Positions 27,849 through 44,601 of a stretch of 64,000 bases of DNA are shown here, piece by piece. The first letter of the stretch is position 1; the number at the start of each line of letters is the position of its first letter. The stretch is from positions 352,001 through 416,000 of the forward strand of contig CBDBOV010000004.1 of the NCBI GenBank assembly GCA_965208575.1, read 5' to 3'. The notes beneath the pieces are model-generated. The model had not been told where the DNA came from, made no database searches, and worked only from the letters and a program-made list of their open reading frames with translations. A program made the translations under genes and the position numbers. The DNA is from Spirochaetia bacterium (GTDB lineage Bacteria; Spirochaetota; Spirochaetia; SZUA-6; Bin103).

Positions 27849-27870
27849 GCGTTTCTCCGTATGTGGATTG

Positions 27871-27927
27871 TTCGAGAGTATTGCGGAGCGGATTGCCGCT
27901 CACTGGCTGCTCTCGGGCCCGCAACGC
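27871..27927 (-). ncRNA. Candidate structured cis-regulatory leader RNA, copy 1
   Basis: mRNA sense: gttgcg..cgagag..gagcgg-caat-ccgctc-cgcaat-a-ctctcg. Homologous to 44237-44292. Confidence 0.55.
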
Positions 27928-28246
27928 GGACCGCCAGTCTGAGTCAGATTCCGAAAGCGCGCGGCGTGTGACTCACCGGGTTGGCCCGGGCTCACGCCGC
28001 GCGCGCGTGCGGTTCTTTCAGTATCATCCTCACATCCTTCCTGGGCACAGGGTGCCCGGGGCACGGGGTGCCCGCCGGATGCCTGACGCAAGAGGGGATC
28101 CGCGTGTGCGGCGCTCGTCCGGAGCGGTTAGTTGTTTCTCGTATAAAGAGTTGCGGGGGGCGGGGGCGGGCGGGGACACACCGGTCCGTTCAACCGGTGG
28201 CGCCTTCAGGTGCTTACGACAACGTATCGTCCACATCAGCCAGATC

Positions 28247-28375
28247 TCCAGCCAACAGCCACCATAATCCACGCGCGACGAGCTGTCAAGCTCTCTTTCT
28301 CGGGCTGGCCAAGGCTGGAGCACGGCGGGCGGATCGGGTGGCAACCGTCACCCGGCGCGGGGAGGATGGGCGGTA
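28247..28375. repeat. ~129-bp direct repeat, copy A, containing a minus-strand promoter TTGACA-17-TATGGT (28289-28261)
   Basis: Near-identical to 32499-32626. Confidence 0.9.
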
Positions 28376-28402
28376 TCTCGGCGCTCGCCGTTCGTTGCCC
28401 GG

Positions 28403-28450
28403 CTAGCGCCCCGAAATCCCCGCCTGCGGCGGCGCTTCCGGCCCAACCGG
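28403..28450 (+). repeat. 48-bp dispersed repeat (REP/MITE-like), copy A
   Basis: 45/48 identical to the reverse complement of 42308-42355. Confidence 0.85.
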
Positions 28451-28456
28451 CCTACT

Positions 28457-28487
28457 TAGGAGCCTGCCGGAATCCGACAGGCTCCTA
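28457..28487 (-). terminator. Stem-loop at the end of ABC module 2
   Basis: taggagcctg-N11-caggctccta overlapping the dppC stop codon. Confidence 0.6.
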
Positions 28488-29384
28488 GGTCGCGCCGCGC
28501 AACCGCGGGTCGAGAAGGTCGCGCAGGGCGTCGCCGAACATGTTGAGACTGTAAACGGTAATAGTCAGGCAAAGACCAGGCCAAAGAGCCAGCCATGGCC
28601 CCTGTTCCATGTATCTGCGCCCTTCCCTGCTAAGCAGCCCGCCCCACTCAGGAATCTCCAATGGCAGACCGAATCCGAGGAAGCTCAGAGCGGCCACACT
28701 CAGGATTACGCCCCCGATGCTGATGCTGAATGTGATGATTACGATAGGCATAATATTGGGCAGGACATGTCGGATTAGTGTTCTCCCTTTCGAGCTGCCA
28801 ATCGCCGCCGCTGCCTGAAAATAGACATTCTCTTTGACACCAATAACCGCGCCTCTGACTGTTCTTGAGCCGACGATGCCTCCTGTTATCCCCAGGACCA
28901 CTATCATCTGTGGCATGCCCCGCCCCACTATGGACATTACGGTCAACAACAGGAGCAGTCCCGGGAAAGCCATCCAGGCATCGACAAATCTCTGCACCAC
29001 CAGGTCCAGTTTACCGCCAACGAATCCCGAAATGCCGCCTATCAGGACAGCGACCACAACATTGAGAGCGGTCGCCGCCAGACCGACAAGTAACGAAATG
29101 CGAGCTCCGTAGATGAGGCGGCTCAAAAAGTCTCGCCCCAAGTGGTCGGTACCCAGGAGATACTGGGCTGATGAGCCCTGAAGCCTGTCTACTACGTGTT
29201 GTTCCCAATAAGGATAAGGAGCCAGGACATCGGCAAAGATAGCCACAAGAATCAATAGCAATACGATAATCCCGCTGGCAGTACCCATCGGCTTCTCCTT
29301 CCACAGCCTGATGAAGAAATCAGCCAGCCCGGTACGTCTCTTTGGATCGCTTGCTGTTGATGGTATTCCTAGGTCGCTACTCAT
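28485..29384 (-). CDS. Peptide/nickel ABC permease, DppC type (module 2)
   Basis: LGTDHLGRDFLSRLIYGARIS, RHVLPN, PEWGGLL. Confidence 0.93.
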   Translation of the reverse strand: MSSDLGIPSTASDPKRRTGLADFFIRLWKEKPMGTASGIIVLLLILVAIFADVLAPYPYWEQHVVDRLQGSSAQYLLGTDHLGRDFLSRLIYGARISLLVGLAATALNVVVAVLIGGISGFVGGKLDLVVQRFVDAWMAFPGLLLLLTVMSIVGRGMPQMIVVLGITGGIVGSRTVRGAVIGVKENVYFQAAAAIGSSKGRTLIRHVLPNIMPIVIITFSISIGGVILSVAALSFLGFGLPLEIPEWGGLLSREGRRYMEQGPWLALWPGLCLTITVYSLNMFGDALRDLLDPRLRGAT

Positions 29385-29394
29385 ACTCGCTCTT

Positions 29395-30348
29395 CTATTT
29401 ATAACGGACCCTGGGATCCAAAACAGGATACATCAGGTCGATCAATAGATTGATCCCCATAACCATAGTGGCGAAAAACAAGTTTACTCCTGAGACCACC
29501 GGGTAGTCTCTGTCTTCGAGCGCCCCCACCATGAGACGACCGAGCCCCGGCAGGTTGAATATGTTCTCCATGATAACGGAGCCGCCTACCAGGATAGGCA
29601 TCTGCAGGCCGATCAGGGTAACTACCGGGATGAGCGCATTCTTGACGGCGTGTCTGACAATGACGACCCTCTCCTTCAGCCCCTTGGACCAGGCCGTCCT
29701 GATGTAGTCCTGCCTGAGCACCTCCAGCATCATGGTGCGGGTCATCCGCATGGCGGCTGCAGAAAGGTAGGTCCCAAGAATCAAGCTGGGAATTATGAAC
29801 ACGCCGAGATTCCCCAGCGGGTCTTCCGTGAGAGGAACCCACTGCATCGGTGGCGACCAGCCCCACCAGATTGCCGGGTAGAGCATGACCATCAGGGCTA
29901 GCCAGAAGTTAGGCGTTGCCAGGCCGATGATGGCAACCGAGCGCCCCAGGTAATCGGCGGCCGTATCTTGACGAATCGCGGAGTAGATGCCGACGGGCAG
30001 GGCTATCACCAGCCCGATCGCGATCGCCAGGACTCCAAGTTCAATGGTTACCGGCAATCTATCCAATATCTTTTCCTCCACCGAAGAAGCGCCGCCAAAC
30101 AGTGATTTGCCAAGGGTGCCGTGCAGGATAATACCTTCCATCCAGCGTCCGTACTGCACGTACAAAGGCACGTCCAATCCCAGCTCCCGCTCCAGAGCTT
30201 CACGGTCTCCCTCGCCAACCGCGTACTCCATACTCATTAGGTCTATTGCATCGCCGGGGATGAAGCGGACCGAGAGAAAGACCAGTACGGTCAATATAAG
30301 CAAGCTAGGGACTATCAGCAATAAGCGCCTGATGATATAGGCTCTCAT
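29395..30348 (-). CDS. Peptide/nickel ABC permease, DppB type (module 2)
   Basis: MRAYIIRRLL, EVLRQDYIRTAWSKGL, RDYPVV. Confidence 0.93.
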   Translation of the reverse strand: MRAYIIRRLLLIVPSLLILTVLVFLSVRFIPGDAIDLMSMEYAVGEGDREALERELGLDVPLYVQYGRWMEGIILHGTLGKSLFGGASSVEEKILDRLPVTIELGVLAIAIGLVIALPVGIYSAIRQDTAADYLGRSVAIIGLATPNFWLALMVMLYPAIWWGWSPPMQWVPLTEDPLGNLGVFIIPSLILGTYLSAAAMRMTRTMMLEVLRQDYIRTAWSKGLKERVVIVRHAVKNALIPVVTLIGLQMPILVGGSVIMENIFNLPGLGRLMVGALEDRDYPVVSGVNLFFATMVMGINLLIDLMYPVLDPRVRYK

Positions 30349-30492
30349 GTGATACTTCCCCCTGTCACCGGGAGCCCTTCTACTGAAGGCGCGGCACTGT
30401 CGTCGCCCTCTCCAGGAGTATCGGGAGCGGGCAGGTTTGAACCTCCCCGGCTCCCTCTTTCCCTCAGGTCAGTAACAAGGGGCAATGAACCC

Positions 30493-32295
30493 CTAATGAC
30501 CCATTGCGCTCTTTAGCTCACCATCAATCCAGAGGCGGGCCAATATCTGATAAGCTTGACCATAACCCAGCGTGGATTCACCATTATAACCTATGACCCA
30601 CGGCTGATTCCAGTTAAACTGCGGGGACTCAGGCCCCCATATATACCAGTGCTTCTCAGTCGCGTACATGTCCAGCTCTCTAAACAGCCTCTTGTACTCC
30701 TCGAGGTCGGTAGTAGCTCGCATGGCTTCAAACTTGGCGTCAAAAGTCGGGTCCGACATTTGGCCGGCGGGGTTCCACATGGGAGGGTTGCCGTACCAGC
30801 GGCCCACCAGATGCTCAGCAAGATAGTGATGGCTCATCTCCCCGGAACGCATAGCCTCATGCATTGAGGAGCTCGCTATTTTGGCTAACTGAGGAGTCTC
30901 CATTGCTTCAATCTCTACAACAATGCCAATCTCACGCCAGTATGCAGAGGCTAATTCTTGATAGCCGGTAGGTAAGTGCGCAAAGGCCAGGCTGACAGTC
31001 TTGAATCTAATGCCGTCGGCGCCACGAGGAAATCCGGCCTCATCGAGTAACGCTTCTGCCGCTGCCGGGTCATAGGTATAGCGTTCCTTGATCTCTTCGG
31101 GCCACTCCTCATATGGCACGTAATAGCCTTTGAGAGAATCCCCCACCACCCCGCGAGGTTCCCAGTTTGCATAACCCCTAAAGAAGGTATTGGCAATGGT
31201 CTCAAGGTCCAGTGCCTTCTGCATTGCTATACGCACCCGAATGTCGCTAAAAAGCGGGTTATTCAGGTTCATACTAAAAGCATGATTCGACCGGATAAAA
31301 ACCTTGTGCACCTCAATTTCGGGATTGCTCCTCTGGAGGCTCTCTACCTGGTCGAGAGACTTGATGTCAGAGGAGATAGCGGCCATACTTCCAAACTCAA
31401 CCTTACCCGAGCGCATCGCTGCCAGACGTGTTGCCTCTTCTGGCATGACAAGGGCCTTTAACTCGTCCATGTAGGGCAAGCGGTTCTCCGGGTATTTTTC
31501 GTCGTAGCCCCAGTAGTCAGGATTCTTGATGAAGGTGTAAGAGCTGCCCTCGACCCAGTCGCCCAGCATCCAGGGCCCGGTGCCGACCAGGTTCCTCCAA
31601 TCCTTAGCGTCGCCGTATTGCTCGATTACCTCGGGGGGGTATATCCAATTAGTCCACCAATCCGTGATAAGCGCGAACGGATTGACGTGTGGCCGCTTCA
31701 GCTTGAAAACGACGGTATATTCGTCGGTGGCCGTTATCGATTCGAATTGCACAGACTTCATATCATGTAATGATGGGCTAGGTTCGGTGAAGCCGCTGCC
31801 CACACCCAAGATGCGGTGATAGTTATATTCGACATCCTTGCCAGTTAGCTCCCGCCCGTTCATCGGCGCCTTATCATGCCAGTGAACGCCTCTACGGATA
31901 TTGAACACAAAAGTTGTGGCGTCGGGCTGTTCCCAGCTTTCCGCCAGCTGCCCTATCAAGTATTCTGGAGGTACGTTTGGACCTTGCCAGCTCCATTCGT
32001 CCCTATCTACTGCCCAGTCTCCTATAACTAGCTTCTCTATAACGCCAGAGACGAACAAACTGGCGTTGCCACTAATGAACCAGGCGTCGGCAATCTCAAA
32101 CTCCTTAGTAGTGGGGAAGGTCAATGTCCCGCCGTACTCTGGCGCGACCACTACCTCCCCGGTGCTGGGGTCGGTCACATACCTCTTGTCGGCGGCGGCT
32201 GCCGGTGCCTCTTCCGTGCCAGCGGCCCACAGGCCGGTTGCGGTCAGGGCGAATCCAATCAGGATCGCCAGGCTCTTTCTTACCATACTGCTCAT
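30493..32295 (-). CDS. Family 5 ABC substrate-binding protein (module 2)
   Basis: AAGGAG RBS, signal peptide, PEYGGTL, LAESWE, VGTGPW, VRIAMQKALD. Confidence 0.92.
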   Translation of the reverse strand: MSSMVRKSLAILIGFALTATGLWAAGTEEAPAAAADKRYVTDPSTGEVVVAPEYGGTLTFPTTKEFEIADAWFISGNASLFVSGVIEKLVIGDWAVDRDEWSWQGPNVPPEYLIGQLAESWEQPDATTFVFNIRRGVHWHDKAPMNGRELTGKDVEYNYHRILGVGSGFTEPSPSLHDMKSVQFESITATDEYTVVFKLKRPHVNPFALITDWWTNWIYPPEVIEQYGDAKDWRNLVGTGPWMLGDWVEGSSYTFIKNPDYWGYDEKYPENRLPYMDELKALVMPEEATRLAAMRSGKVEFGSMAAISSDIKSLDQVESLQRSNPEIEVHKVFIRSNHAFSMNLNNPLFSDIRVRIAMQKALDLETIANTFFRGYANWEPRGVVGDSLKGYYVPYEEWPEEIKERYTYDPAAAEALLDEAGFPRGADGIRFKTVSLAFAHLPTGYQELASAYWREIGIVVEIEAMETPQLAKIASSSMHEAMRSGEMSHHYLAEHLVGRWYGNPPMWNPAGQMSDPTFDAKFEAMRATTDLEEYKRLFRELDMYATEKHWYIWGPESPQFNWNQPWVIGYNGESTLGYGQAYQILARLWIDGELKSAMGH

Positions 32296-32320
32296 GGTTT
32301 ATCTCCTTGGAGAAAGCCAG

Positions 32321-32400
32321 TTGAGAGCACTGACTCCACTGCCGGCCCCTCGCAACGCTCGCGACGGTCGCAAGCGAGCGCACTCTCGTCGAACGAGGGC
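32321..32400 (-). ncRNA. Candidate structured leader RNA, divergent copy 2
   Basis: mRNA sense: ccctcg..gagagtgc-gctcgc...gcgagc..cgaggg...gtgctctcaac, same stem order as copies 1 and 3. Confidence 0.4.
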
Positions 32401-32498
32401 GACACCCTGTAGCGGCCGCAGCCGCTCGGTCTCTCGTGAGTCTCTTATCGCGTGCCTCCTTTGGCGCGCGCCGCGCCGAAAGGCAGCCATGCGCGCCG

Positions 32499-32626
32499 TC
32501 CAGCCAAGAGCCACCGTAATCCATGCGCGGCGAGCTGTCAAACTCTCTTTCTCGGGCTGGTCAGGCTGGAGCACGGCGGGCGGATCGGGTGGCAACCGTC
32601 ACCCGGCGCGGGTAGTATGGGCGGTA
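32499..32626. repeat. ~128-bp direct repeat, copy B, with back-to-back promoters: minus TTGACA-17-TACGGT and plus TGGCAA-17-TAGTAT
   Basis: Near-identical to 28247-28375 and ends at the GTG of the AAA gene. Confidence 0.9.
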
Positions 32627-34189
32627 GTGAAGCGCAGACTGCCGCTCGGCATCCAGACCCTCCGCGAGATTCGTGAGCGGAACTGCTACTACGTGGACAA
32701 GACCGGCTACCTCGACCGGCTGCTCGACGAGGGCAAGCACTGGTTCCTGTCGCGACCGCGGCGGTTCGGCAAGAGTCTGTTCCTGGACACCGTGAAGGAG
32801 TTCTTCGAGGGCAACGAGGAGCTGTTTCGGGGGCTGTACATTCACGGGCGCCGGGACTGCTCGCAGCGCCACCCGGTGGTGCGGTTGAGCTTCGCCGGCG
32901 GCAACTTTGCCAACCCGGGTTACCTGCCCAAGAACGTGATCGCCCAACTGGACGGAATCGAGCGCCAACGGTCGATCCGCGGGCGCTTTGACACGGCGGC
33001 GGACCGCCTGCGGGACCTGCTGGAAACCCTGCACCGGGAGACCGGACAGCGGGTGGCGGTGCTGGTGGACGAGTACGACAAGCCGATCCTGGACGCGCTG
33101 GAGAAGCCGGAGCTGGCGCGCGCCAACCGTGACGAGCTGAGCGGCGTGTACGGGGTGATCAAGGACGCCGACGCCCACGTGTGCTTCACGTTCCTGACCG
33201 GGGTCAGCAAGTTCTCGAAGGTCAACCTCTTTTCGGGACTCAACAACCTCACCGACCTCACCCTCGATCCGCGCTACGCGGCGATCTGCGGCTATACCGA
33301 CGAGGATCTGGATCGGGTGTTCGCTGCGGAACTCCCCGGGCTCGACCGCGAGCAGATCCGCGACTGGTACAACGGCTACCACTGGCGCGGCAGCGAGCGG
33401 GTGTACAATCCCTACGACGTGCTGCGGCTGTTTCACAGCCGCGAGTTCGACGCCCACTGGTTCGAGACCGGTTCGCCGGCGTTCCTGGTGAAGACGCTGT
33501 TCGAGCGCCGCGTCACGTCGGTGTCACTGGGGGAGACGGTGAGTACCGCGGAGTTACTGTCGGCGTTCGACGTCGGCGGCCGCTCCGCCGCCGAGCACAT
33601 CGGCACCGAGGCGTTGTTGTTCCAGACCGGCTACCTGACCATCGACAGCGAGGAGCGGCGCGCCGGCAGGACGATGTATCGCCTCGGCTACCCCAATCGC
33701 GAGGTGCGCCAGAGCCTGAACGACCATTTGCTGCGCCACCTGGTGCGGGATTCCAGCCGCCAGACCGCCAACAGCATCCGCCTCTACGACCTGCTGGAGG
33801 CGAACGACTTCGACGGCATGCAGGCGCTGTTCCAGGCATTTTTCTCCAGTATTCCGTACCAATGGTACACGAACAACGACATCGCGCAGTACGAGGGCTA
33901 CTACGCGAGCGTGTTTTTCTGCTACTTCGCGGCCCTGGGATATGAGATCACCGTGGAAGACTCCAGCAGTCACGGGCGGCTGGACATGGCGGTGCGGGCC
34001 GGCGGCCAGGTGTACCTGTTCGAATTCAAGGTCGTGGAGATGGAACCGGAGGGCAGTGCGCTGGCGCAGCTTCAGAGCCGGGACTACGCGGCCAAGTACC
34101 GCCACCTGGGCGAGCCGATCCACCTGGTGGGGGTGGAGTTCAGCCGCGCCACCCGCAACGTGACCGCGTTCGCGGTGGCGCCGGGCTGA
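32627..34189 (+). CDS. AAA-ATPase-like protein with C-terminal PD-(D/E)XK nuclease domain
   Basis: LPLGIQT, YYVDKT, SRPRRFGKSL, VDEYDKP, TGVSKF, WYNGY, GRLDM, FEFK. Confidence 0.93.
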   Translation: MKRRLPLGIQTLREIRERNCYYVDKTGYLDRLLDEGKHWFLSRPRRFGKSLFLDTVKEFFEGNEELFRGLYIHGRRDCSQRHPVVRLSFAGGNFANPGYLPKNVIAQLDGIERQRSIRGRFDTAADRLRDLLETLHRETGQRVAVLVDEYDKPILDALEKPELARANRDELSGVYGVIKDADAHVCFTFLTGVSKFSKVNLFSGLNNLTDLTLDPRYAAICGYTDEDLDRVFAAELPGLDREQIRDWYNGYHWRGSERVYNPYDVLRLFHSREFDAHWFETGSPAFLVKTLFERRVTSVSLGETVSTAELLSAFDVGGRSAAEHIGTEALLFQTGYLTIDSEERRAGRTMYRLGYPNREVRQSLNDHLLRHLVRDSSRQTANSIRLYDLLEANDFDGMQALFQAFFSSIPYQWYTNNDIAQYEGYYASVFFCYFAALGYEITVEDSSSHGRLDMAVRAGGQVYLFEFKVVEMEPEGSALAQLQSRDYAAKYRHLGEPIHLVGVEFSRATRNVTAFAVAPG

Positions 34190-34359
34190 CCAAGCTATAC
34201 CGGCGTGGCATCTGAAGTCGGCGTGTCGTCCGAGGGGTCCACGTCGTCCGTGAGCCGATGCCTGGTGATTCCCCCGTCCGGGAACCGCTCGTCAAGGGTG
34301 CACACAGGCCGTCCGGAGGCACCGTTCCGGCCGCTGGCAACGGTGAAGCTCGCGGACGA

Positions 34360-34388
34360 TTGACGACCGCGCCGAACGCCCCTACCGT
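34360..34388 (+). promoter_or_regulatory. Sigma70-type promoter of the SDR gene
   Basis: TTGACG-17-TACCGT, very similar to 18496-18524. Confidence 0.6.
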
Positions 34389-34445
34389 GGTTGATCGACG
34401 GGCCCAGGTGAGCGGTGGACGCACACGCGACGGGCAGGAGGGAGA

Positions 34446-35234
34446 ATGGCCAGGAAACTGGAAGGCAAGGTCGCCGTCGTTACCGGCGGCAACAGCGGCA
34501 TCGGCGAAGCAACCGGCAAGGCGTTGGCCCTGGCGGGTGCCAAGGTGGCGCTGCTGGCCAGACGGCAGGACAAGGGCCAGGCCGTACAGGACGAGATTCG
34601 GGACGCGGGAGGCGACGCCACCTTCATCGGCTGTGATGTCAGCGACAACGAAGCCGTCGAGGCGGCAATCGCGCAAGCCGTCGAGACCTACGGAGCGATA
34701 CGTATCCTCGTCAACAACGCCGGCGGCGGTGGGTTTGGCGGCAAGGCCGGGGAACCGATGCGGTTGGAGGACGACGAGACGTGGAACCGCGTCATCTCCG
34801 TCAACCTGACCGGCCCGTTCTACGTAACCCGGGCCGTCTGGCCGCACATGGCAGCCGCCGGCGGCGGCGTTATCACCAATATCTCATCCGGCGCCGCCGG
34901 GGCGGGCTTCACCCAGAAGATGCTGGAGATACGCGGCGGCTTTGACGTCTCCAGCTACTACGCCGCCAAGGCGGGGCTCGAAGGCTTTACGCGCGTCACC
35001 GCGAGCATGGGCGCGCCGGAGAACATCAGGGTCAACGCCATCCGGCCGCGCCTGATAGTGGACAAGAAAGGCCACCACTGGCTCGAACACGTCCGCGAGT
35101 ACACCCAGATTCTGGACGGCAAGGTGGAGGCGGAAGACATCGCCAACACCGTGCTGTTCCTCAGCTCCGACGATGCTCGCTACATCAACGCCGCGACGCT
35201 GGAGGTCGGCGGCGGTACTGTCGCCAACGTCTAA
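34446..35234 (+). CDS. SDR family oxidoreductase
   Basis: TGGNSGIG, NNAG, YYAAK. Confidence 0.93.
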   Translation: MARKLEGKVAVVTGGNSGIGEATGKALALAGAKVALLARRQDKGQAVQDEIRDAGGDATFIGCDVSDNEAVEAAIAQAVETYGAIRILVNNAGGGGFGGKAGEPMRLEDDETWNRVISVNLTGPFYVTRAVWPHMAAAGGGVITNISSGAAGAGFTQKMLEIRGGFDVSSYYAAKAGLEGFTRVTASMGAPENIRVNAIRPRLIVDKKGHHWLEHVREYTQILDGKVEAEDIANTVLFLSSDDARYINAATLEVGGGTVANV

Positions 35235-35250
35235 CGCGAAGGATGCGACC

Positions 35251-35279
35251 TTGACCGCCAATGGGCCGGGTCGTATAGT
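35251..35279 (+). promoter_or_regulatory. Promoter for a leaderless Ldh_2 transcript
   Basis: TTGACC-17-TATAGT, 6 nt before ATG. Confidence 0.65.
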
Positions 35280-35285
35280 CCGCCG

Positions 35286-36353: not shown

Positions 36354-36418
36354 ACGCCGAGCATGCTTCCCCACGCCAGAGGGCCGCGCACCTCGGGTCC
36401 CCATCCCAGCGACACCAA

Positions 36419-38071
36419 ATGAGTTTCTGGACGCCGCACGGCATCGGCCATCCGGCCTACCGGCCGTCGGTGGCGGGCCTCAATGGCATGGTGGCATCCG
36501 GTCACTCGCTCGCCTCGCAGGCGGGGGTGCACATCATGCAGGCGGGCGGCAACGCGATCGATGCGGCGATTGCCGCGGCGGCGGCGGTGGGCGTAGTGGA
36601 GCCGGCGATGTCGGGCGTCGGCGGCGACGGCTTCATCCTGATCTTTGACGCCGCGACCGGGCGGCCGTACGGCGTCAACGCCACCGGGCCGGCGCCGGCA
36701 CGCGCGACGCGCGAGCGCTACCTGGAGCGCGGCGGCATTCCGTTGCACGGCATGCTGAGCGTGTCGGTGCCGGGCCTGGTCGACGGCTGGCTGCTGGCGC
36801 AGCGCCGGTTCGGCAAGCTGGACCTGGCTCAGGTGCTCGCCCCGGCGGTCGAGCTGTGCGAGCGCGGCTTCCCGGTGAGCCACAAGCTGGCCGCCGCCCT
36901 GGCGGCCGAGCACGGGCCGCTGGCGGCGGACGCCGCGGCCGGGGCGGTGTTCGCACCACGCGGGCGTCCGCTGCGCGCGGGCGAGATCCTGGTGCAGCGC
37001 GACCTGGGCACCACGCTGCGCCGGATCGGCGAGCAGGGCCGGGCGGCGTTCTACGAGGGCGAGATTGCGCGCCGCATCGGGGAAGCCAGCCGCGCACACG
37101 GCGGCGTGCTGGACGAGGACGACCTGGGCGCCTACCACGCCCGCTGGGACGAGCCCATCCACGTGGACTACCACGGCCACCGGGTGTACGAGATGCCGCC
37201 CAACTCCAGCGGCCACGTCCTGCTGCAGGCGCTCAACCTGGTGGAGCGGTTCGACCTCGCCGGCATGGGCTGCCTGTCGGCCGACGGCATTCACGTCATG
37301 GTGGAGGCGATCCGGCTCGCTTTCGCCGACCGTGAGCGGTACGTGGCCGATCCCGACTGGATCGACGTGCCGCTCGACCGCCTGCTGGGAAAGGACTACG
37401 CCCGGCAACGGGCAGCCTTGATCGACCCGGCGCGTACTACTCCCGGCGTCGGTCCCGGCGCGCTGCCCGGCGCGGATCAGGCGGGCGATACCACCTGCCT
37501 GTGCGCGGCCGACGGCGCCGGCAACGCGGTGTGCCTGCTGCAGAGCATCCAGACCGCGTTCGGCTCCTGCGTGGTCGCCGGCGGCACCGGCGTTCTGCTC
37601 AACAACCGTATGACCTACTGGCACCTCGAGGCCGATCACCCGAACGTGCTCGCTCCCGGCAAGCGGGTGCGCCACACCATGAACCCGGTCATCGCCACGC
37701 GCGCCGGCCGCCCGGTGATCGTGTGCGGCACGCCGGGGGCGGACACGCAGGTGCAGACCAACCTGCAACTGCTCGCCGGCGCCATCCACTTCGGCATGAC
37801 CCCGCAGGAGGCGGTCGAGGCGCCGCGCTGGCGCAGCCTGCAGAACCCGATGGAGTCCACCCTCCCCCACACCTGTGAGGACCGGCTGGACATGGAAACC
37901 CGCTTCCCGCCGGCGGTGCGGGCAGCCCTGGAGAGCAAGGGCCACCGTGTCCATACCATCGGCCCCTGGGGCGGCCCCGGCAACGCCCAGTTCATCGGCA
38001 TCGACGCCACCACCGGCGTGCTGCAAGGCGGCTCCGACCCGCGCCGGGACGGCTACGCCATCGGCTTCTGA
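36419..38071 (+). CDS. ggt: Gamma-glutamyltransferase family protein
   Basis: GGNAIDAA, SGVGGDGF, VPGLV, DTT nucleophile site, PGKRVRHTMNP, GSDPRRDG. Confidence 0.92.
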   Translation: MSFWTPHGIGHPAYRPSVAGLNGMVASGHSLASQAGVHIMQAGGNAIDAAIAAAAAVGVVEPAMSGVGGDGFILIFDAATGRPYGVNATGPAPARATRERYLERGGIPLHGMLSVSVPGLVDGWLLAQRRFGKLDLAQVLAPAVELCERGFPVSHKLAAALAAEHGPLAADAAAGAVFAPRGRPLRAGEILVQRDLGTTLRRIGEQGRAAFYEGEIARRIGEASRAHGGVLDEDDLGAYHARWDEPIHVDYHGHRVYEMPPNSSGHVLLQALNLVERFDLAGMGCLSADGIHVMVEAIRLAFADRERYVADPDWIDVPLDRLLGKDYARQRAALIDPARTTPGVGPGALPGADQAGDTTCLCAADGAGNAVCLLQSIQTAFGSCVVAGGTGVLLNNRMTYWHLEADHPNVLAPGKRVRHTMNPVIATRAGRPVIVCGTPGADTQVQTNLQLLAGAIHFGMTPQEAVEAPRWRSLQNPMESTLPHTCEDRLDMETRFPPAVRAALESKGHRVHTIGPWGGPGNAQFIGIDATTGVLQGGSDPRRDGYAIGF

Positions 38072-38160
38072 TGCAGGTCGAACGCGCCATGCGATCGGTC
38101 CCAGGCGGTCAGCGCGACTGATCTTGCGTCATGAACCATTATGCGGATAGTCTATGAACC

Positions 38161-38415
38161 GTGAAGTCAATCACAGTTCATAAACTGGACGACGCCTTGG
38201 CCCGGGAGCTGGAACTGAAGGCTCGGCGCGAAGGCGTGTCGATCAACCGGCTGGTCAAAGGACTGCTGCGAGCATCGCTCGGCCTCGAGAAACCCGCCGC
38301 CATCGACAGGCGGGCCGACTTCGAGGATCTGTTCGGCGGCTGGTCCGAGGAAGAGGAGCATCGGTTCAAGCGCCGGTTGGCGGATCTCGAACGCATAGCG
38401 CCCGACGAGTGGTAG
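38161..38415 (+). CDS. VapB-type ribbon-helix-helix antitoxin
   Basis: MKSITVHKLDDAL...ARREGVSIN, directly upstream of a PIN toxin. Confidence 0.8.
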   Translation: MKSITVHKLDDALARELELKARREGVSINRLVKGLLRASLGLEKPAAIDRRADFEDLFGGWSEEEEHRFKRRLADLERIAPDEW

Positions 38416-38422
38416 TTGGTCC

Positions 38423-38824
38423 GTGAGGTGGATCCTGCTCGATACCAACGCGTACAGTGCGTACCGACGCGGCAACTCGGATGTGCTGGATGCGCTTGGC
38501 AGGGCCGAAAGGGTGTTCATGTCGGTGTTTGTTCTGGGCGAACTCCTGTACGGCTTCCGCGGTGGCAATCGATATGTCCAGAACCGGCGTGAACTCGGTG
38601 CTTTTCTCGACAAGCCATCGGTGTTCGTGGCCACGGCTACCGACGAAACGTCCGAGCAATTCGCGGTAACCAAGGAGGCCCTCCGCCAAGCCGGCACGCC
38701 GCTACCCATGAACGACGTGTGGATCGCCTCGCATTGCCTTCAGTTGGGCGCCACCATGGTCACGCTCGACGGACACTTCGGCAACGTCCCGGGACTACGC
38801 GTCTGGCCGCCGGCCGGCGCATGA
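38423..38824 (+). CDS. vapC: VapC PIN-domain toxin
   Basis: LDTNAY, GEL, NDVWIA, TLDGHF. Confidence 0.92.
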   Translation: MRWILLDTNAYSAYRRGNSDVLDALGRAERVFMSVFVLGELLYGFRGGNRYVQNRRELGAFLDKPSVFVATATDETSEQFAVTKEALRQAGTPLPMNDVWIASHCLQLGATMVTLDGHFGNVPGLRVWPPAGA

Positions 38825-38858
38825 GAAACAGCACACTGGGGAGTGACCGTACAGACTC

Positions 38859-40301
38859 TCAGCGCAATGGGTGCGGGCGCGTCGGCGGATCGACGTCGGC
38901 CGGAATCGGACACACGTAGGGGGTGCCGTTGGCGGCCGCCGCCAACTCGGCCTGTGCGTTGCGCAAGTGCTCGGGATCCAGGTACAGGTCGAGCGCCGCC
39001 ACCGCCATCACCTTGGCGGAGTGCATCATGCCCTTGTGACCGATTGAGGTAGCCCCGGTGGCCACGATGCCCCAACTGTGGCCGGGGGCTTGGGTGGCCC
39101 AGCAGGCGGTGCGCAGCATGCTCAGCGGCGTGATCCAGCTCACGTCGCCCACGTCGGTAGAGCCGGTGCCCACCCAGTCCGCGTCCCACGCCGGGAAGTT
39201 GTCGCCGATCAGCGGTTCGTGCGCCAGCCGTTGCAGCCGCGGACGCTCCTCCGGCGGCGTCTGCCAGCCGGCGAACATCTCGTCGGCGCCCCGCGCCCGG
39301 AACGCCGCGTTGACCGTCGCCGCGTACGCCTTCTCCTCGGCGGTGAACTCGATCGGACCGACCAGTTGCATCGCCTCGTACTGCAGATCCGCCAGGTGAG
39401 CGTTGTTGAGCACCCGCGAGCAGGCGCCGCGCACCCGCATCTGCACGGTGGTGTCGGTCATCAGCGCCGCGCCGCGGGCGCAGTTGCGGACCCGCTCGGA
39501 CACCTCCTCGATCTCGGCCCGTTCCAGGGCGCGCACGAAGTACCACACCTCGGCGGTGTCCGGGACCACGTTGGGCAGCTTGCCGCCGTCGGTGATCACG
39601 TAGTGGATGCGCACCTTGTCGGTGACGTGCTCGCGCAGGAAGTTGACGCCGACGTTCATCAACTCCACGGCGTCCAGGGCCGAGCGCCCCTCGTGCGGCG
39701 CGCCGCCGGCGTGCGCGGTGCGGCCGTGGAAACGGAACACCAGGTCGTTGACGCCGACGCAGGTACCCTTGGACGGTGCGTTGACATTGGCCGGGTGGAA
39801 GTTGAACGCCGCATCCAGGTCGTCGAACGAGCCGGTGCGGGCCATGAACGCCTTGCCGCTGATCTGCTCCTCGGCCGGACAGCCGTAGTAGCGCACGGTG
39901 CCGGCGGTGCCGGTCTCCTGCAGCCAGCGCGCCACGGCCACCGCCGCGGCCAGGCCGCCGGTACCGAGCAGGTTGTGCCCGCAGCCGTGGCCGGGGCCGC
40001 CCTCCACCACCGGCTCCTGGGTCGGCTGGCGCTTCTGTGACAGCCCAGCCAGCGCGTCGTATTCGCCCAGGTAGCCGATGATCGGGGCGCCGGAACCTGC
40101 CTCGGCGCAGAACGCGGTGGTGATGCCGCCCAGGTCCCAGGTCACGGCAAACCCCTCGGCGGCCAGGAAGTCCGCCTGCAGCTTGGAAGAGGCGAACTCT
40201 TCCCAGGCCACTTCCGGGTTGGCCCACAACGTGTCGGCCATATCCGTAAACCGCCCCCGGTTCCGGTCGAGCCACTCGATGACATCCTGTTTACTGTGCA
40301 T
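38859..40301 (-). CDS. M20 family amidohydrolase (AbgB-like)
   Basis: GEYDAL, GHGCGHN, PAEE, GSTDVGDVSW, H-SW. Confidence 0.92.
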   Translation of the reverse strand: MHSKQDVIEWLDRNRGRFTDMADTLWANPEVAWEEFASSKLQADFLAAEGFAVTWDLGGITTAFCAEAGSGAPIIGYLGEYDALAGLSQKRQPTQEPVVEGGPGHGCGHNLLGTGGLAAAVAVARWLQETGTAGTVRYYGCPAEEQISGKAFMARTGSFDDLDAAFNFHPANVNAPSKGTCVGVNDLVFRFHGRTAHAGGAPHEGRSALDAVELMNVGVNFLREHVTDKVRIHYVITDGGKLPNVVPDTAEVWYFVRALERAEIEEVSERVRNCARGAALMTDTTVQMRVRGACSRVLNNAHLADLQYEAMQLVGPIEFTAEEKAYAATVNAAFRARGADEMFAGWQTPPEERPRLQRLAHEPLIGDNFPAWDADWVGTGSTDVGDVSWITPLSMLRTACWATQAPGHSWGIVATGATSIGHKGMMHSAKVMAVAALDLYLDPEHLRNAQAELAAAANGTPYVCPIPADVDPPTRPHPLR

Positions 40302-40322
40302 AAGCTCCTCTCCGTGCTCTAC

Positions 40323-41240
40323 CTATCGGCCCAGTCCAGCCCCACGTCCCCTGAGCCGCGGATCGAGCAGGTCGCGCACGGCGTCGCCGAACATGTTCAG
40401 GCTGTAGATGGTAACGGTCAGGCAAAGACCTGGCCAGAGGGCCAGCCACGGCGCCGCCTCCATGTATTTGCGCCCTTCCCGGCTCAGCATGCCTCCCCAG
40501 TCAGGAATTGCGGGCGGCAGACCGAAGCCCAGGTAGCCCAGCGAAGCCAGAGCCATGATAACGCCGCCTACACTGGTGCTGAATGAAATGATTATGACGG
40601 GTGTGATATTGGGCAAGACGTGGCGTAAGAATGACCTCCATTTCGACGAACCGACGGCCTCCGCCACCACAAAATAGATACTCTCCTTGATGCCGATCAC
40701 GGCGCTCCTGATTACGCGCGCGCCAGCTATACCTCCTGATATACCCAGGATCAGGATTATCTGCACGAGACCCTTCCCCACTATGGAGATGACCGTCAAC
40801 ATGAGCAGCAATCCCGGGAACGCCATCCAGGAGTCGACAAATCTCTGTACGATCAGATCCAGCTTACCACCCACGAATCCGGAAACGCCGCCTACCAGGG
40901 TACTGATGAGGACACTGAGCGTGGTCACCGTCAGACCGACAAGTACGGAAACACGAGCCCCGAATATGACACGGCTGAGAACGTCTCGTCCGGTTTGGTC
41001 GGTACCCAGTAGATATTTGGAGGACGGGCCCAAGAGCCTGTCTGCCAGGTGCATTTCCTTGTATGGATAAGGGGCTAATTCGCCCCCGAACACAGCCACC
41101 ACAATCAATAGGAGTATGACGATTCCGCTGGCCATGCCCAGTGGCTTCTGGCGGGCCAGCCTGACGAAGAAATCGGCCACGGCACTACGGCTCTTTGGCG
41201 TACCTGCCGGTGAGGATGGCGCGGTACCAGCACTACTCAT
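40323..41240 (-). CDS. Peptide/nickel ABC permease, DppC type (module 3)
   Basis: LGTDQTGRDVLSRVIFGARVS, PDWGGML. Confidence 0.93.
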   Translation of the reverse strand: MSSAGTAPSSPAGTPKSRSAVADFFVRLARQKPLGMASGIVILLLIVVAVFGGELAPYPYKEMHLADRLLGPSSKYLLGTDQTGRDVLSRVIFGARVSVLVGLTVTTLSVLISTLVGGVSGFVGGKLDLIVQRFVDSWMAFPGLLLMLTVISIVGKGLVQIILILGISGGIAGARVIRSAVIGIKESIYFVVAEAVGSSKWRSFLRHVLPNITPVIIISFSTSVGGVIMALASLGYLGFGLPPAIPDWGGMLSREGRKYMEAAPWLALWPGLCLTVTIYSLNMFGDAVRDLLDPRLRGRGAGLGR

Positions 41241-41255
41241 AGTCCGATTCCACTC

Positions 41256-42215
41256 CTATTGATAGCGGATCCTGGGGTCCAAATAGGGATACAACATGTC
41301 GATGAGGAGAATATTGAGCAGGACTACGGTGGAAAGAATCAGGTTGATTGCCGAGATTACCGGGTAATCTCGTTTATCGAGTGCGTCCAGAAACATCCGG
41401 CCGAGCCCCGGCAGAACAAATATGTCCTCCATGATGACGGAGCCGCCTATCAGGATCGGCAGATGCAGGCCGACCAGCGTCACGATCGGGATGAGAGCAT
41501 TCTTGACGGCGTGTCGGGCTACGACGACTCTCTCCTTGAGGCCCTTCGACCAGGCGGTTCGGATGTAGTCTTGCCTGAGCACCTCCAGCATCATGGTGCG
41601 CGTCATCCGCATTATGGCTGCCGACATGCCGGTGCCCAGAATCAAGCCTGGAATGAAGAACATGCCGAGATTCCCCAGTGGATTGTCCGCGAACGTAATC
41701 AACTCGACCGGTGGCGACCAGCCCCACCAGATCGCCGGGAACAGCATGATCATGATTCCCAGCCAGAAGTTAGGGGTTGCCATGCCGATTACGGCGACGG
41801 TCCGTCCTAGGTAGTCGGTGGGCGTATCCTGGCGGATCGCCGAGTAGATGCCGACCGGCAGGGCTATCACGAGCGCGATTGCGATTGCCATGGCACCGAG
41901 CTCGATGGTGACCGGCAATCTACCCGATATCCTCTCCGCTATCGACCACTGGCCGATAAGCGACTCGCCAAACGTGCCGTGCAGAAAAATACCTCTCATC
42001 CAGCGTCCATACTGCATGTAGACCGGCACGTCCAACCCCAGCGAATGCCGAAGCGCCACCTCGTCCACCTGGCCTCCGGTCTGCGGCCCCAGCGAAGTCA
42101 CGAGATAGTCCACTACATCGCCGGGTATGAAGCGGGCCGCGAGAAACACCAGGATGGTCAACATGAACAGGGCCGGGATGGTCAGCAACAACCGCCTGAT
42201 GAGATAGGCTCTCAT
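41256..42215 (-). CDS. Peptide/nickel ABC permease, DppB type (module 3)
   Basis: MRAYLIRRLL, EVLRQDYIRTAWSKGL. Confidence 0.93.
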   Translation of the reverse strand: MRAYLIRRLLLTIPALFMLTILVFLAARFIPGDVVDYLVTSLGPQTGGQVDEVALRHSLGLDVPVYMQYGRWMRGIFLHGTFGESLIGQWSIAERISGRLPVTIELGAMAIAIALVIALPVGIYSAIRQDTPTDYLGRTVAVIGMATPNFWLGIMIMLFPAIWWGWSPPVELITFADNPLGNLGMFFIPGLILGTGMSAAIMRMTRTMMLEVLRQDYIRTAWSKGLKERVVVARHAVKNALIPIVTLVGLHLPILIGGSVIMEDIFVLPGLGRMFLDALDKRDYPVISAINLILSTVVLLNILLIDMLYPYLDPRIRYQ

Positions 42216-42256
42216 GGGACAGACCTCATTTTCTTTGCCCCGGCGAAAGCCGCAAA

Positions 42257-42300
42257 GGGAGCTGGGATGCGCTACGGTACGCGACCGCCTCCCAGCTCCC
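42257..42300 (-). terminator. Intercistronic stem-loop after SBP gene 3
   Basis: gggagctggga...tcccagctccc, followed by ttt on the minus strand. Confidence 0.6.
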
Positions 42301-42307
42301 AGGCAGT

Positions 42308-42355
42308 CCGGTTGGGCCGGAAGCGCCGCCGCAGGCGGCGGCTTCGGGGCGCTAG
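42308..42355 (-). repeat. 48-bp dispersed repeat, copy B (inverted relative to copy A)
   Basis: Reverse complement matches 28403-28450 at 45/48 positions. Confidence 0.85.
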
Positions 42356-42371
42356 TAGTGAGTGAAACCCA

Positions 42372-44213
42372 CTAGTAGCCCATTGCTTCCTTCAGGTCCT
42401 GGTCAATCCAGAGGCGGGCAAAGAGCGTATTGCGTTCCGCGCGTCCCATGTTCCATTCGCCGTTGTAACCCTTGACCCACGGTTGATTCACGCTATAGAT
42501 GGGACTGGTGGACTTGGTCAGGCCCCAGTGCTCCCTTACCATGATCTCATCGGCCTGTCTGATAATGCTCTTCATCTCGTCCATGTCGATCGGCTCCACG
42601 TCCGGAAACTCCGAGTGCCACCCTCCGCCGGTCGAACGATACAGGGCATCCACCCGCGGGTCGGTAGCCTTGTTGAAGCAAATCCTGCAATAGCTGGTCT
42701 TCGTGCCAAGGTTCCAACGCATGCCAAAGGTGCCCGCGAAGCCCTGGTATGTGCCACTCAACAGGTGCCACTCAGCCGTCTTCGCCGCGTTTCTGGCTCC
42801 GGACTCGGCATTGGACTGCAAGACGAGCTCGCTTTCAACGCCAATGGCCTCAAAGTAGCCCATGACGATCTCTGCGTAGGTCGGGTCGAACCTGTCGTGC
42901 AGGGCTAACGCGATCTTGAATCGATAGCCGTCGTCGCCGCGCGGGTGCCCGGCCTCATCAAGCAGAGCTTCCGCCGCGGCCGGGTCGTAGCGGTATTCTT
43001 CCTTGATCTCTTCGGGCCATTCCTCATATGGCCAGTAAAATCCTTCCGCCACGTTTTGCGAGACCAACCCACCAGGGGTCGGATCTCCGTAGCCCCGGAA
43101 GTAGTTGGCGGAAATGTTCTCGCGGTCCACCGACATCTGCAGTGCCTTGCGCACGTTGGGATCGTCAGTGGGTGCCAACGCCCAGTTGAAATTGAACTGG
43201 CCCGATGGTCCCCCATAAACGCTCCACGCCTCGATCTCAGGGTTGGTCTTCTGCAGGGTCTCCAAGTCGTCGATCGAGTAGATGTTTACGTCGCCGGTGT
43301 TACCCATGTAATCAACTTTGCCGGTGCGCAGTGCCGCCAGACGGGTTGACATGTCCGGCATGAGGAGGGCCCGGTACTCGTCAATGTACGGCAGGCGGTT
43401 GTCCGGAAATTTCTCGTCGTAGCCCCAGTAGTTGGGATTCTTCTGCCAGGTTACGGAGCTTCCCTCTACCACGTCAGTCAGTCGCAACGGCCCGGTACCG
43501 ACCACGTTCCGCCAGTCCTTCATGTCTCCGTATTCCTCGATCACCTCACGCGGGACCGCAAACCAGAAATTGTTGAGCATACTCTCCAGCGTGGCGAGTA
43601 CAGGGTTCGTCAGCTTGATCTCAACCGTCCATTGGTCAGTGGCGGTTACCGACTCGACAGGTACACCGAGCAGATACCCATGGGCACTAGGTCCGGCTTC
43701 GGCAAAATCTCCCAGACCCAGATAGCGGTGGAAGTTCCACTCGACGTCGTAGGCATCGAACCCGCGACCGTTCACCGGTGCCTTGTCGTCCCAGGAGACG
43801 CCCTGGCGGATACTGAAGATCAGCGTGGTGTCGTCGGGCATGGACCAGCTTTCGGCCAGAGCCCCCCTACTGAACTCGGGCGGTCGGTCCCAGAATCCGA
43901 AATTGAACGTGTCCCTGGATATTCCCCAGTCGGTGAAGGCGAGCGGCTCATTGACGCCACTGATGAAGTGGGCCGCCCAGCCGCCACCAATCAGGAACGG
44001 ATCAGGATTCTCGGCAAGAGCCTTCGTCGGCCAGGTGATTGTCCCGCCATACTCCGGCGCGGTCACCATCTTGCCGGTGGTGGGGTCGAGCACCATCTCC
44101 TTCTCGGCGGTCGCGGCCGGCTCCTCTTCCGCCGCCGCGGCCCAGAGACCGGTTGCGGTCAGAACGAGGACCAGCGCAACCGCGAGGGTCCGTGTGATCT
44201 GTACAACGTGCAT
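42372..44213 (-). CDS. Family 5 ABC substrate-binding protein (module 3)
   Basis: GGAG RBS before ATG 44213, signal peptide, PEYGGTI, LAESWS, VGTGP. Confidence 0.92.
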   Translation of the reverse strand: MHVVQITRTLAVALVLVLTATGLWAAAAEEEPAATAEKEMVLDPTTGKMVTAPEYGGTITWPTKALAENPDPFLIGGGWAAHFISGVNEPLAFTDWGISRDTFNFGFWDRPPEFSRGALAESWSMPDDTTLIFSIRQGVSWDDKAPVNGRGFDAYDVEWNFHRYLGLGDFAEAGPSAHGYLLGVPVESVTATDQWTVEIKLTNPVLATLESMLNNFWFAVPREVIEEYGDMKDWRNVVGTGPLRLTDVVEGSSVTWQKNPNYWGYDEKFPDNRLPYIDEYRALLMPDMSTRLAALRTGKVDYMGNTGDVNIYSIDDLETLQKTNPEIEAWSVYGGPSGQFNFNWALAPTDDPNVRKALQMSVDRENISANYFRGYGDPTPGGLVSQNVAEGFYWPYEEWPEEIKEEYRYDPAAAEALLDEAGHPRGDDGYRFKIALALHDRFDPTYAEIVMGYFEAIGVESELVLQSNAESGARNAAKTAEWHLLSGTYQGFAGTFGMRWNLGTKTSYCRICFNKATDPRVDALYRSTGGGWHSEFPDVEPIDMDEMKSIIRQADEIMVREHWGLTKSTSPIYSVNQPWVKGYNGEWNMGRAERNTLFARLWIDQDLKEAMGY

Positions 44214-44236
44214 ACGTAACTCCGTATGTTGACTTG

Positions 44237-44292
44237 TTGAGAGTGTTGCGGAGCGCCGTGCCGCTCTCTGGCCACTCTCGCGCCCGCAACGC
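44237..44292 (-). ncRNA. Candidate structured cis-regulatory leader RNA, copy 3
   Basis: mRNA sense: gttgcg..gagagt..gagcg-gcacgg-cgctc-cgcaac-actctcaac. Confidence 0.55.
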
Positions 44293-44357
44293 AGGCAGTC
44301 AGTCAGACTGGCACGCTCGCCCCGAGGCGTCAAGCGCGCGCGGACTCGACAATTCCT

Positions 44358-44568
44358 ATGTTGGCTTGCCATCACCTCGACCCTCCGCGGCGCGCCCACC
44401 GAGGTAGAGCTGGGTACCGCCGAGGGGCTCAAGGGAAGCTCGTGCGCCAACCTGTGCAACCTGTTCACGGTAGAGCAGCGCCGGCTGCGAACCTTCGTGG
44501 GGAGCGTCGGTGCGGACAAGATGCGCCAAGTGTGCCGGGCGCTGCTCGTCGCCAGCGGGTGCGACTGA
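44358..44568 (+). pseudogene. C-terminal two-thirds of a PemK/MazF toxin with no in-frame start
   Basis: 44368-44568 reads AITSTLRGAPTEVELGTAEGLKGSSCANLCNLFTVEQRRLRTFVGSVGADKMRQVCRALLVASGCD*. Confidence 0.8.
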
Positions 44569-44601
44569 ACAGGGCACACGAACGCCGCGCCGGCAGCGGG
44601 G

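Follow-up and report, generated by a model that had tools for sequence, protein, structure and literature searches.

The closest described counterparts of the leader RNAs reported here are the H-type pseudoknot regulators of 5′ untranslated regions (5′ UTRs), among them the preQ1-II, SAM-II/V, fluoride and guanidine-III riboswitches and the translational operators of S15 and S4. We analysed a stretch of 64,000 nucleotides (nt) from a Spirochaetia bacterium (contig CBDBOV010000004.1, positions 352,001 to 416,000; hereafter the window), in which three genes for family-5 solute-binding proteins (SBPs) of ATP-binding cassette (ABC) transporters are each preceded by a structured leader, called here copies 1, 2 and 3. 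Like the H-type regulators, these leaders would place a compact pseudoknot near the ribosome-binding site (RBS), with helices that abut without a loop 2. They differ, however, in having no match in Rfam 15 even at E ≤ 10, in being confined to a single genus, in that their 3′ strand is a CUCUC lying 15-25 nt upstream of the Shine-Dalgarno and not the Shine-Dalgarno itself, and in coming as three sequence types that are interchangeable between orthologues.

Four other kinds of system invite comparison. Leader-peptide attenuators (trpL, hisL, pheL, mgtL) also have a Shine-Dalgarno and a very short open reading frame (ORF) ending in a strong hairpin upstream, whereas the present leaders are without a regulatory codon run, a consistent U-tract and a supported antiterminator, and about 110 nt separate the end of their hairpin, which we call HP0, from the SBP start. 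The targets of the small RNAs GcvB and AbcR share a common leader feature on many SBP mRNAs and an A/C-rich stretch before the Shine-Dalgarno, but here the feature is a folded module duplicated along with the gene; Hfq was not found in the genome, nor was a small RNA identified. Stabilisers of the 5′ end (the ompA 5′ hairpin, the aprE leader, the cryIIIA STAB-SD) are alike in that stable stems and Shine-Dalgarno-like purines (GAGAG, GGGAG) lie in the leader mRNA of a strongly expressed secreted protein, yet the enzymes that they counter, RNase E/G and RNase J, were not found. Finally, repetitive extragenic palindromes and the mosaic elements built on them (REP/BIME) are high-copy GC-rich palindromes beside transporter genes as well, whereas the elements described here always stand 5′ of an SBP gene, in a single orientation and at a fixed distance.

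We read the leaders as the reverse complement (minus strand), upstream of each SBP start codon. The initial annotation had taken the three copies for one leader. Copies 1 and 3 do belong together, as members of a large family in which they form no special pair: both are type I, a structured mRNA leader of about 80 nt that is specific to one genus. Copy 2 falls into a sister family of leaders, type II/III. A short-word BLAST search of the source genome with the leaders of copies 1 and 3 returned 51 copies, 50 of which have, on the same strand and about 20-35 nt downstream, an ATG with a Shine-Dalgarno at which a highly conserved signal peptide (..FAVALVLVLTATGLWAAGAEEEPAAA..) begins; only the degenerate copy at C4:527349 departs from this. 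Since 50 of the 51 copies immediately precede an SBP-type start and share its strand, a dispersal like that of REP or miniature inverted-repeat transposable elements (MITE) fails as an account of the family. A covariance model for type I (R1), built from 50 of the copies, gave 60 matches in the source genome, and such numbers go far beyond chance. The claim that a structured element is conserved at a set position ahead of SBP genes is supported. Among ten congeners, seven gave 81, 41, 34, 31, 5, 2 and 1 matches and the other three none; R1 had 0 matches across 13 genomes of the sister genus, and a DNA search for the leader in 17 genomes from seven other families of the order found none.

Within the window R1 matches copies 1 and 3 only, and copy 2 gives no R1 match even at E ≤ 1. 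Its sole common feature with type I is the helix GAGAG/CUCUC, which we call the clamp (strands b and b′), and SBP paralogues outside type I still have this helix, as (C)GAGAG[YR]..[YR]CUCUC(G), 15-25 nt before the Shine-Dalgarno. Copy 2 groups with the type II leaders (..GUCGCCCUCG.. / ..GGCGAGGGGCCGGCAGUGGA..), to which type III (..CCGUCGCU.. / ..GGCGACGGAUGCACAG..) is close. A model of type II/III (R2) was built from 20 leaders and recovers copy 2 with the strand pair a/a′ (CCCUCGCU/GGCGAGGG) and the clamp, a match that is partly by construction because copy 2 is in the seed alignment. R2 has 25 matches in the source genome, copy 2 included, with 46, 44, 17, 13, 7 and 3 in six congeners and 0 in the other four. 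The leader was thought to be new, and comparison with Rfam agrees: Rfam 15 gave 0 matches over the whole window at the gathering cut-off, and of 6 weak matches at E ≤ 10 over 27800-44600 none falls on any leader. The titles and beginnings of abstracts returned by a full-text literature search contain nothing on the leader or on the upstream ORF (uORF) described below.

The initial annotation further expected the element to be more conserved than its surroundings and to be transcribed, and the data are in line with both. Pairwise identity has a median of 0.80 in the leader, 0.76 across the signal peptide and linker and 0.59 in the coding body, and leader identity lies above coding-body identity in 99.1% of 990 pairs, the two being weakly correlated (rho 0.25). 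Furthermore, the leader is present in RNA-library contigs in which it is joined to the SBP gene, their strand and ends not being given. Contigs with at least 88% likeness to the region come from four libraries of three studies, and RNA libraries that bear the labels sponge and marine metagenome contain leader-like sequences. One contig of 547 nt covers 27427-27973, from coding sequence into HP0, and another, of 1509 nt, matches 27874-28026, extends 80 nt beyond this on the upstream side and otherwise runs into the SBP gene; the loose contig ends at 28027 lead into a Shine-Dalgarno variant known from other copies. Mapping at 88% likeness stops where paralogues diverge, and the lack of cover upstream of about 28066 is for this reason uninformative.

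The leaders can change hands. The protein encoded behind leader L082 is 84% identical to the copy-1 SBP over 600 amino acids (aa) but has its own first ~18 residues, and L082 is of type III; leader and signal-peptide cassettes have therefore been exchanged between types. SBP homologues that are 40-64% identical occur in metagenome-assembled genome records titled Dehalococcoidia and 'bacterium', and these gave no R1 match at E ≤ 0.1 (L103 reached 13.5 bits, E = 0.29) and showed no clamp by eye, while L084, from a record titled Tectimicrobiota, has a type I leader at 90 bits. The upstream regions L087, L090, L102, L103 and L105 (records titled Dehalococcoidia) have a conserved sequence of their own, ..GTGGTATAAC..CACATCCCGTCATGGGG.., unrelated to the leaders here.

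Next we examined which helices are supported by covariation. For type I we aligned 150 distinct cores with MAFFT, leaving out 8 near-duplicates and 2 degenerate matches, and gauged support against 500 shuffles by the pairs and alignment cells changed on both sides and by the percentage paired. A model of four helices is 94.0% paired and has double-sided changes in 12 of its 24 pairs, against 6.0±1.5 expected (0/500 shuffles). The clamp, GAGAGUA/UACUCUC, contributes 5 of 7 pairs (1.7 expected; 4/500) and 14 cells (2.0 expected; 0/500); the hairpin H1, GNCCGC-GUU-GCGGNC, is 98.2% paired with 3 of 6 pairs (18/500) and 8 cells (2.7 expected; 0/500); and the inner hairpin H3 has 14 double-changed cells against 5.4 (0/500), mostly from one closing pair. 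Cells with G.U outnumber those with A.C by 118 to 4 in H1 and by 66 to 17 in H3, an excess of the kind that selection on the sense-strand RNA leaves behind. The unpaired internal-loop strands of type I are at least 90% conserved. In type II/III the clamp has double changes in 6 of 8 pairs (2/500) and is 95.3% paired against 89.3% in shuffles, in an alignment of 83 leaders that was fitted to the clamp; with 20 sequences aligned by MAFFT, blind to structure, the count is 4 of 8 pairs. The minimum free energy folds from RNAfold of copies 1 and 3 contain H1, clamp and H3 (z -1.86 and -3.06), and that of copy 2 is unremarkable (z -0.74).

The pairings quoted in the initial annotation are all present as letters: GUUGCG/CGCAAU, GAGCGG-caau-CCGCUC and CGAGAG/CUCUCG in copy 1; GAGCG-gcacgg-CGCUC in copy 3, where the clamp reads GAGAGUG/CACUCUC; and CCCUCG/CGAGGG, GCUCGC/GCGAGC and GAGAGUGC/GUGCUCUC in copy 2. 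As helices they fared unequally. The GAGAG/CUCUC helix does keep its pairing while its sequence changes, with covariation in types I and II/III, and the proposed inner hairpin is the covariation-supported H3. By contrast, the helix P1 proposed for copies 1 and 3 (GUUGCG/CGCAAU) is 95.1% paired against 95.0% in shuffles (221/500), with 1 double-sided change against 0.4 expected (195/500). P1 competes with the supported H1 for its GCG bases, and natural variants keep H1 but break P1, namely L185 and L244, in which the H1 loop is inverted from GUU to AAC, and a subfamily without CGCAA. Type I has further variants: about 20 copies (L191-L206, L216, L220, L231, L243 and L246 among them) have an 18-19-nt tandem duplication of H1, and in L042, L069 and L081 a 14-nt deletion takes out the clamp 5′ strand. 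There is no genome-wide enrichment of GUU-triloop hairpins, which make up 109 of the 8512 perfect triloop hairpins with 6 base pairs.

Although P1 was to form the pseudoknot of copies 1 and 3, where it is unsupported, an H-type topology is plausible through another pair of strands. In types II/III the strand directly 3′ of the clamp 5′ arm (GGCGAGGG or GGCGACGG) complements an upstream strand (CCCUCGCU or CCGUCGCU), and the P1 proposed for copy 2, CCCUCG/CGAGGG, is this same a/a′ helix. In a set of 83 distinct leaders, 96.5% of the a/a′ cells are paired against 94.4% in shuffles (0/500); one position is CG in 67, GC in 4 and UA in 2 leaders with 9 unpaired cells, and many C-to-U changes stand opposite G. 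Type I has the order a - H1 - b - a′ - (H3) - b′, which matches that of types II/III with different sequences (CUGGC/GCCAG), and the H-type topology is for this reason a recurring theme. Loop 3 is wholly different between types I, II and III. In type I, a/a′ has 2 double-changed pairs against 0.7 expected (60/500) and 3 cells (20/500). We consider the pseudoknot probable in types II/III, where its support is reasonable, and suggest it more tentatively for type I, where we judge its chances to fall slightly short of even.

Upstream of the type I core lies a second conserved part. When the 420 nt upstream of 45 copies in the source genome are aligned, conservation begins abruptly at a Shine-Dalgarno, GGAGG, 5-7 nt ahead of the ATG or GTG of a uORF whose translation is predicted: ATG ATA CTC AAA GAA CCG CAC GCG CGC GCG GCG TGA, or MILKEPHARAA in 11 codons. 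Among 124 distinct type I leaders with enough flank, 92 fit the strict uORF pattern and 50 encode MILKEPHARAA; the ATG or GTG is kept in most, several using GTG, and the Shine-Dalgarno is kept while the spacer length varies. The strict pattern allowed changes at third codon positions only, so that the apparent excess of synonymous changes is partly built in, and non-synonymous variants occur among the 32 leaders that do not fit it. HP0, whose 5′ arm consists of the last uORF codons, is a hairpin of 12+5 base pairs with double changes in 8 of 17 pairs against 2.0 expected (0/500), and the type I core follows all 34 HP0 3′ arms in the source genome. A scan for terminators on the minus strand did not call HP0. 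Of the parts of an attenuator, the short ORF with its own Shine-Dalgarno is thus present, and the U-tract of a terminator and a competing antiterminator are missing. Copy 3 has neither uORF nor HP0 upstream.

Several observations surround this cassette. Just ahead of the copy-1 uORF stands an ATG TGA (28035-28030), and just upstream of the uORF, at 28042-28073 on the minus strand of the window, there are tandem hairpins, GGGCAC-CCC-GUGCCC and GGGCAC-CCU-GUGCCC, where other copies have GUGCCGGC-UUGU-GCCGGCAC. Upstream of type III leaders (L259-L262, L082) lie a site resembling a Shine-Dalgarno and a mini-ORF of just a start and a stop codon, AUG UAG. The apical part of HP0 bears the same ~24-nt insertion (ACTACGGGCCTGGTTCCCGCTC-like) in L005, L009, L024, L162 and L195, which are from different genomes.

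We lean towards the view, with somewhat better than even confidence, that these leaders are cis-acting post-transcriptional cassettes before family-5 SBP genes, with the uORF and HP0 as an input in type I; their folds are in part demonstrated, and their regulatory logic is what we infer. The clamp or pseudoknot would set the access of ribosomes to the SBP start region, or its stability. In type I, translation of the uORF would open HP0 and in this way the translational status could feed into the downstream fold. No small-molecule ligand need be assumed.

A number of points weigh against this view. The copies are close kin (76-95% identical), and kinship alone, with no structure at all, can be enough to beat every shuffle; there are few double changes, often confined to 1-5 sequences, and RNAalifold alone gives H1 only. 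The type I a/a′ helix is the weak one (60/500), with copy 3 itself mismatched there, and neither the type I clamp (20 G.U vs 25 A.C cells) nor a/a′ (17 vs 16) shows the G.U excess. Three copies are without the clamp 5′ strand, while three others retain just the 5′ half. The predicted unpaired probability of the RBS is 0.455 with the native and 0.454 with a shuffled core, the native being higher in 22 of 45, and the idea of an insulator that keeps the RBS open was rejected on this ground. The uORF start is lost in about 6 of the 124 leaders and in 12 a stop follows MILKEP at codon 7. HP0 is without a consistent U-tract, its tails varying (UUC, UUUUAG, GUCAC), and no covarying antiterminator was found, the sole alternative pairing, GAGUCA/UGACUC, being conserved with wobble-type changes only and 0 double changes. 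Finally, the RNA contigs give neither strand nor ends, and DNA may be present in the libraries.

The source genome, 95.2% complete, has 0 matches to CsrA (PF02599), and Hfq, RNase J and RNase E/G were not found in it. Accordingly we rejected control by CsrA, suggested by GGA motifs in each leader type, control through Hfq/ARN, and protection from RNase J or RNase E. An ANTAR dual-hexaloop motif was set aside by reading only, the loops here having 3 and 4 nt, and a hairpin enclosing the Shine-Dalgarno and start codon (CAUACG/CGUAUG) is paired in just 60.4% and not general.

A bolder form of the cassette hypothesis, which we hold to be improbable, is a leader regulon of more than 80 operons per genome, in which interchangeable pseudoknotted cassettes act as a switch that in type I is toggled by ribosomes that translate the MILKEP uORF or stall on it. 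Under this hypothesis, opened HP0 would free GAGUCA..CCGG to capture UGACUC..CUGG, and the capture would dissolve the a/a′ stem so that CUCUC masks the Shine-Dalgarno.

The initial annotation read the element as a riboswitch or protein-binding leader. A conserved leader it is, and a metabolite riboswitch has become less likely, because the element is confined to one genus, its three types have differing loops, and one orthologue of a type I SBP carries a type III leader. In its present form this alternative holds that the pseudoknot is riboswitch-like or binds a dedicated protein, GCCAGG, CGCAA and the loop GUU being the pocket for a global signal that gates the SBP operons. The conservation of the unpaired internal-loop strands would suit such a pocket, as would the recurrence of the topology in three leader types; without an Rfam match it would be new, and that the general RNA regulators CsrA and Hfq were not found is a further point in its favour. 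Known riboswitch classes, however, are not known to be limited to one genus, loop 3 is completely different among the types, and the Shine-Dalgarno does not lie within the clamp 3′ strand. Furthermore, some 85-110 SBPs, presumably of different specificity, would need one common signal. We regard such a pocket as unlikely.

Another possibility is that the leader is a passenger without function of its own, multiplied when the genes duplicated in a recent burst and homogenised by gene conversion, its GC-rich hairpins being incidental. The family is indeed young and limited to one genus, the adjoining signal-peptide region is equally conserved (0.76), as a conversion tract would be, and the swapping of cassettes shows that recombination is at work. 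Conversion nevertheless leaves unexplained the compensatory pairs and the G.U bias, as well as the agreement of three leader types, distinct in sequence, in where the clamp lies and in topology, and the uORF has kept its Shine-Dalgarno and start despite a varying spacer. We give this passenger account rather little credence.

The sigma-54 promoter consensus, TGGCAC-N5-TTGC, has the spacing GG-N10-GC. An element acting at the DNA level, be it operator or promoter palindromes for a common transcription factor or recombination sites that move 5′ cassettes between paralogues, could draw on several perfect palindromes, on a TGGC..TTGC string resembling a sigma-54 promoter, on the exchange of the leader with the first ~18 codons between orthologues and on the weak correlation of leader with coding-body identity, but is very unlikely, since strand-specific wobble and compensatory changes are signatures of RNA, the spacing in copy 1 and in the consensus of the copies is GG-N11-GC, one base over, the 18-nt duplication of H1 in about 20 copies would break it, TTGACT is followed by no sigma-70 -10 element, and RNA-library contigs pass through the leader into the gene. 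Both promoter readings were accordingly rejected.

Table 1. Positions of the leaders, their parts and the SBP genes in the window
Feature	Position	Strand	Basis or remark
Copy 1 type I leader core	27870-27950	minus	R1 match, 93.3 bits
Copy 1 strand a (CUGGC), candidate pseudoknot partner of a′	27933-27937	minus	read; weak covariation
Copy 1 hairpin H1 (GUCCGC-GUU-GCGGGC)	27917-27931	minus	RNAfold, covariation, G.U excess
Copy 1 clamp 5′ strand b (GAGAGCA)	27908-27914	minus	RNAfold, covariation
Copy 1 strand a′ (GCCAG), directly 3′ of b	27903-27907	minus	read; weak covariation
Copy 1 inner hairpin H3 (GAGCGG-CAAU-CCGCUC)	27886-27901	minus	RNAfold, covariation
Copy 1 clamp 3′ strand b′ (UACUCUC)	27874-27880	minus	RNAfold, covariation
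Shine-Dalgarno GGAG of copy-1 SBP gene	27855-27858	minus	read
Copy 1 big hairpin HP0, 12-base-pair outer stem GCGCGCGGCGUG/CACGCCGCGCGC and 5-base-pair inner stem	27957-28004	minus	covariation
Copy 1 uORF, ATG..TGA (MILKEPHARAA)	27992-28027	minus	last codons are HP0 5′ arm
Sigma-70-like promoter match, TTGACA-17-TATGGT	28261-28289	minus	consensus match only; copy-1-specific sequence
Copy 2 type II leader	32303-32408	minus	R2 match, 58.7 bits
Copy 2 strand a (CCCUCGUU)	32392-32399	minus	
Copy 2 clamp 5′ strand b (GAGAGUGC)	32380-32387	minus	
Copy 2 inserted hairpin	32357-32379	minus	
Copy 2 strand a′ (GCGAGGG)	32347-32353	minus	
Copy 2 clamp 3′ strand b′ (GUGCUCUC)	32323-32330	minus	
Copy 3 type I leader core	44235-44317	minus	R1 match, 82.6 bits
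Copy 3 hairpin H1	44282-44296	minus	
Copy 3 clamp 5′ strand b	44273-44279	minus	
Copy 3 strand a′	44268-44272	minus	
Copy 3 inner hairpin H3	44251-44266	minus	
Copy 3 clamp 3′ strand b′	44239-44245	minus	
SBP gene 1	26046-27848	minus	family 5, 600 aa; ATG 27848-27846
SBP gene 2	30493-32295	minus	family 5, 600 aa
SBP gene 3	42372-44213	minus	family 5, 613 aa counted from ATG at 44213

All three SBP genes of the window encode a PF00496 domain and are followed by two BPD_transp_1 permease genes each; with NCBIfam models the proteins resemble DppA, NikA and OppA at sub-threshold scores only. The operons had been described as lacking an ATPase, which holds locally, for no oligo_HPY ATPase lies beside any of the three. 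The source genome (6.5 Mb, 6 contigs) has about 110 paralogues of the window SBP (phmmer, at least 300 bits), and the oligo_HPY domain, the C-terminal domain of Dpp/Opp-type ATPases, has 28 matches elsewhere in it. ATPases are therefore probably shared among the SBP-permease sets. The SBP paralogues split into subfamilies, each with its own N-terminus and its own leader: types I, II, III, 'MTPRL' and 'MVSRF'. The last two, named after their N-termini, have other hairpin leaders without the clamp, those of 'MTPRL' with hairpins CGGG..CCCG. Between SBP operons 2 and 3, at 32561-40275 on the minus strand, there are six ORFs (180-562 aa) with no NCBIfam match, some of which may not be genes, as ORFs overlap on both strands.

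If functional, these leaders would make up an RNA family missing from the catalogues, and few cis-acting leaders would reach as many copies per genome: up to 81 type I and 44 type II/III matches in one genome, placed before an extremely expanded set of transporter binding proteins. The three leader types, of the same topology and swapped between orthologues, together with their deletion, duplication and loop-inversion variants, provide a natural experiment. They could show a post-transcriptional coordination of about 100 uptake systems without CsrA, Hfq, RNase E and RNase J, and the leader regulon, if true, would mean a global coupling of nutrient uptake to translational or amino-acid status that needs neither CsrA nor Hfq.

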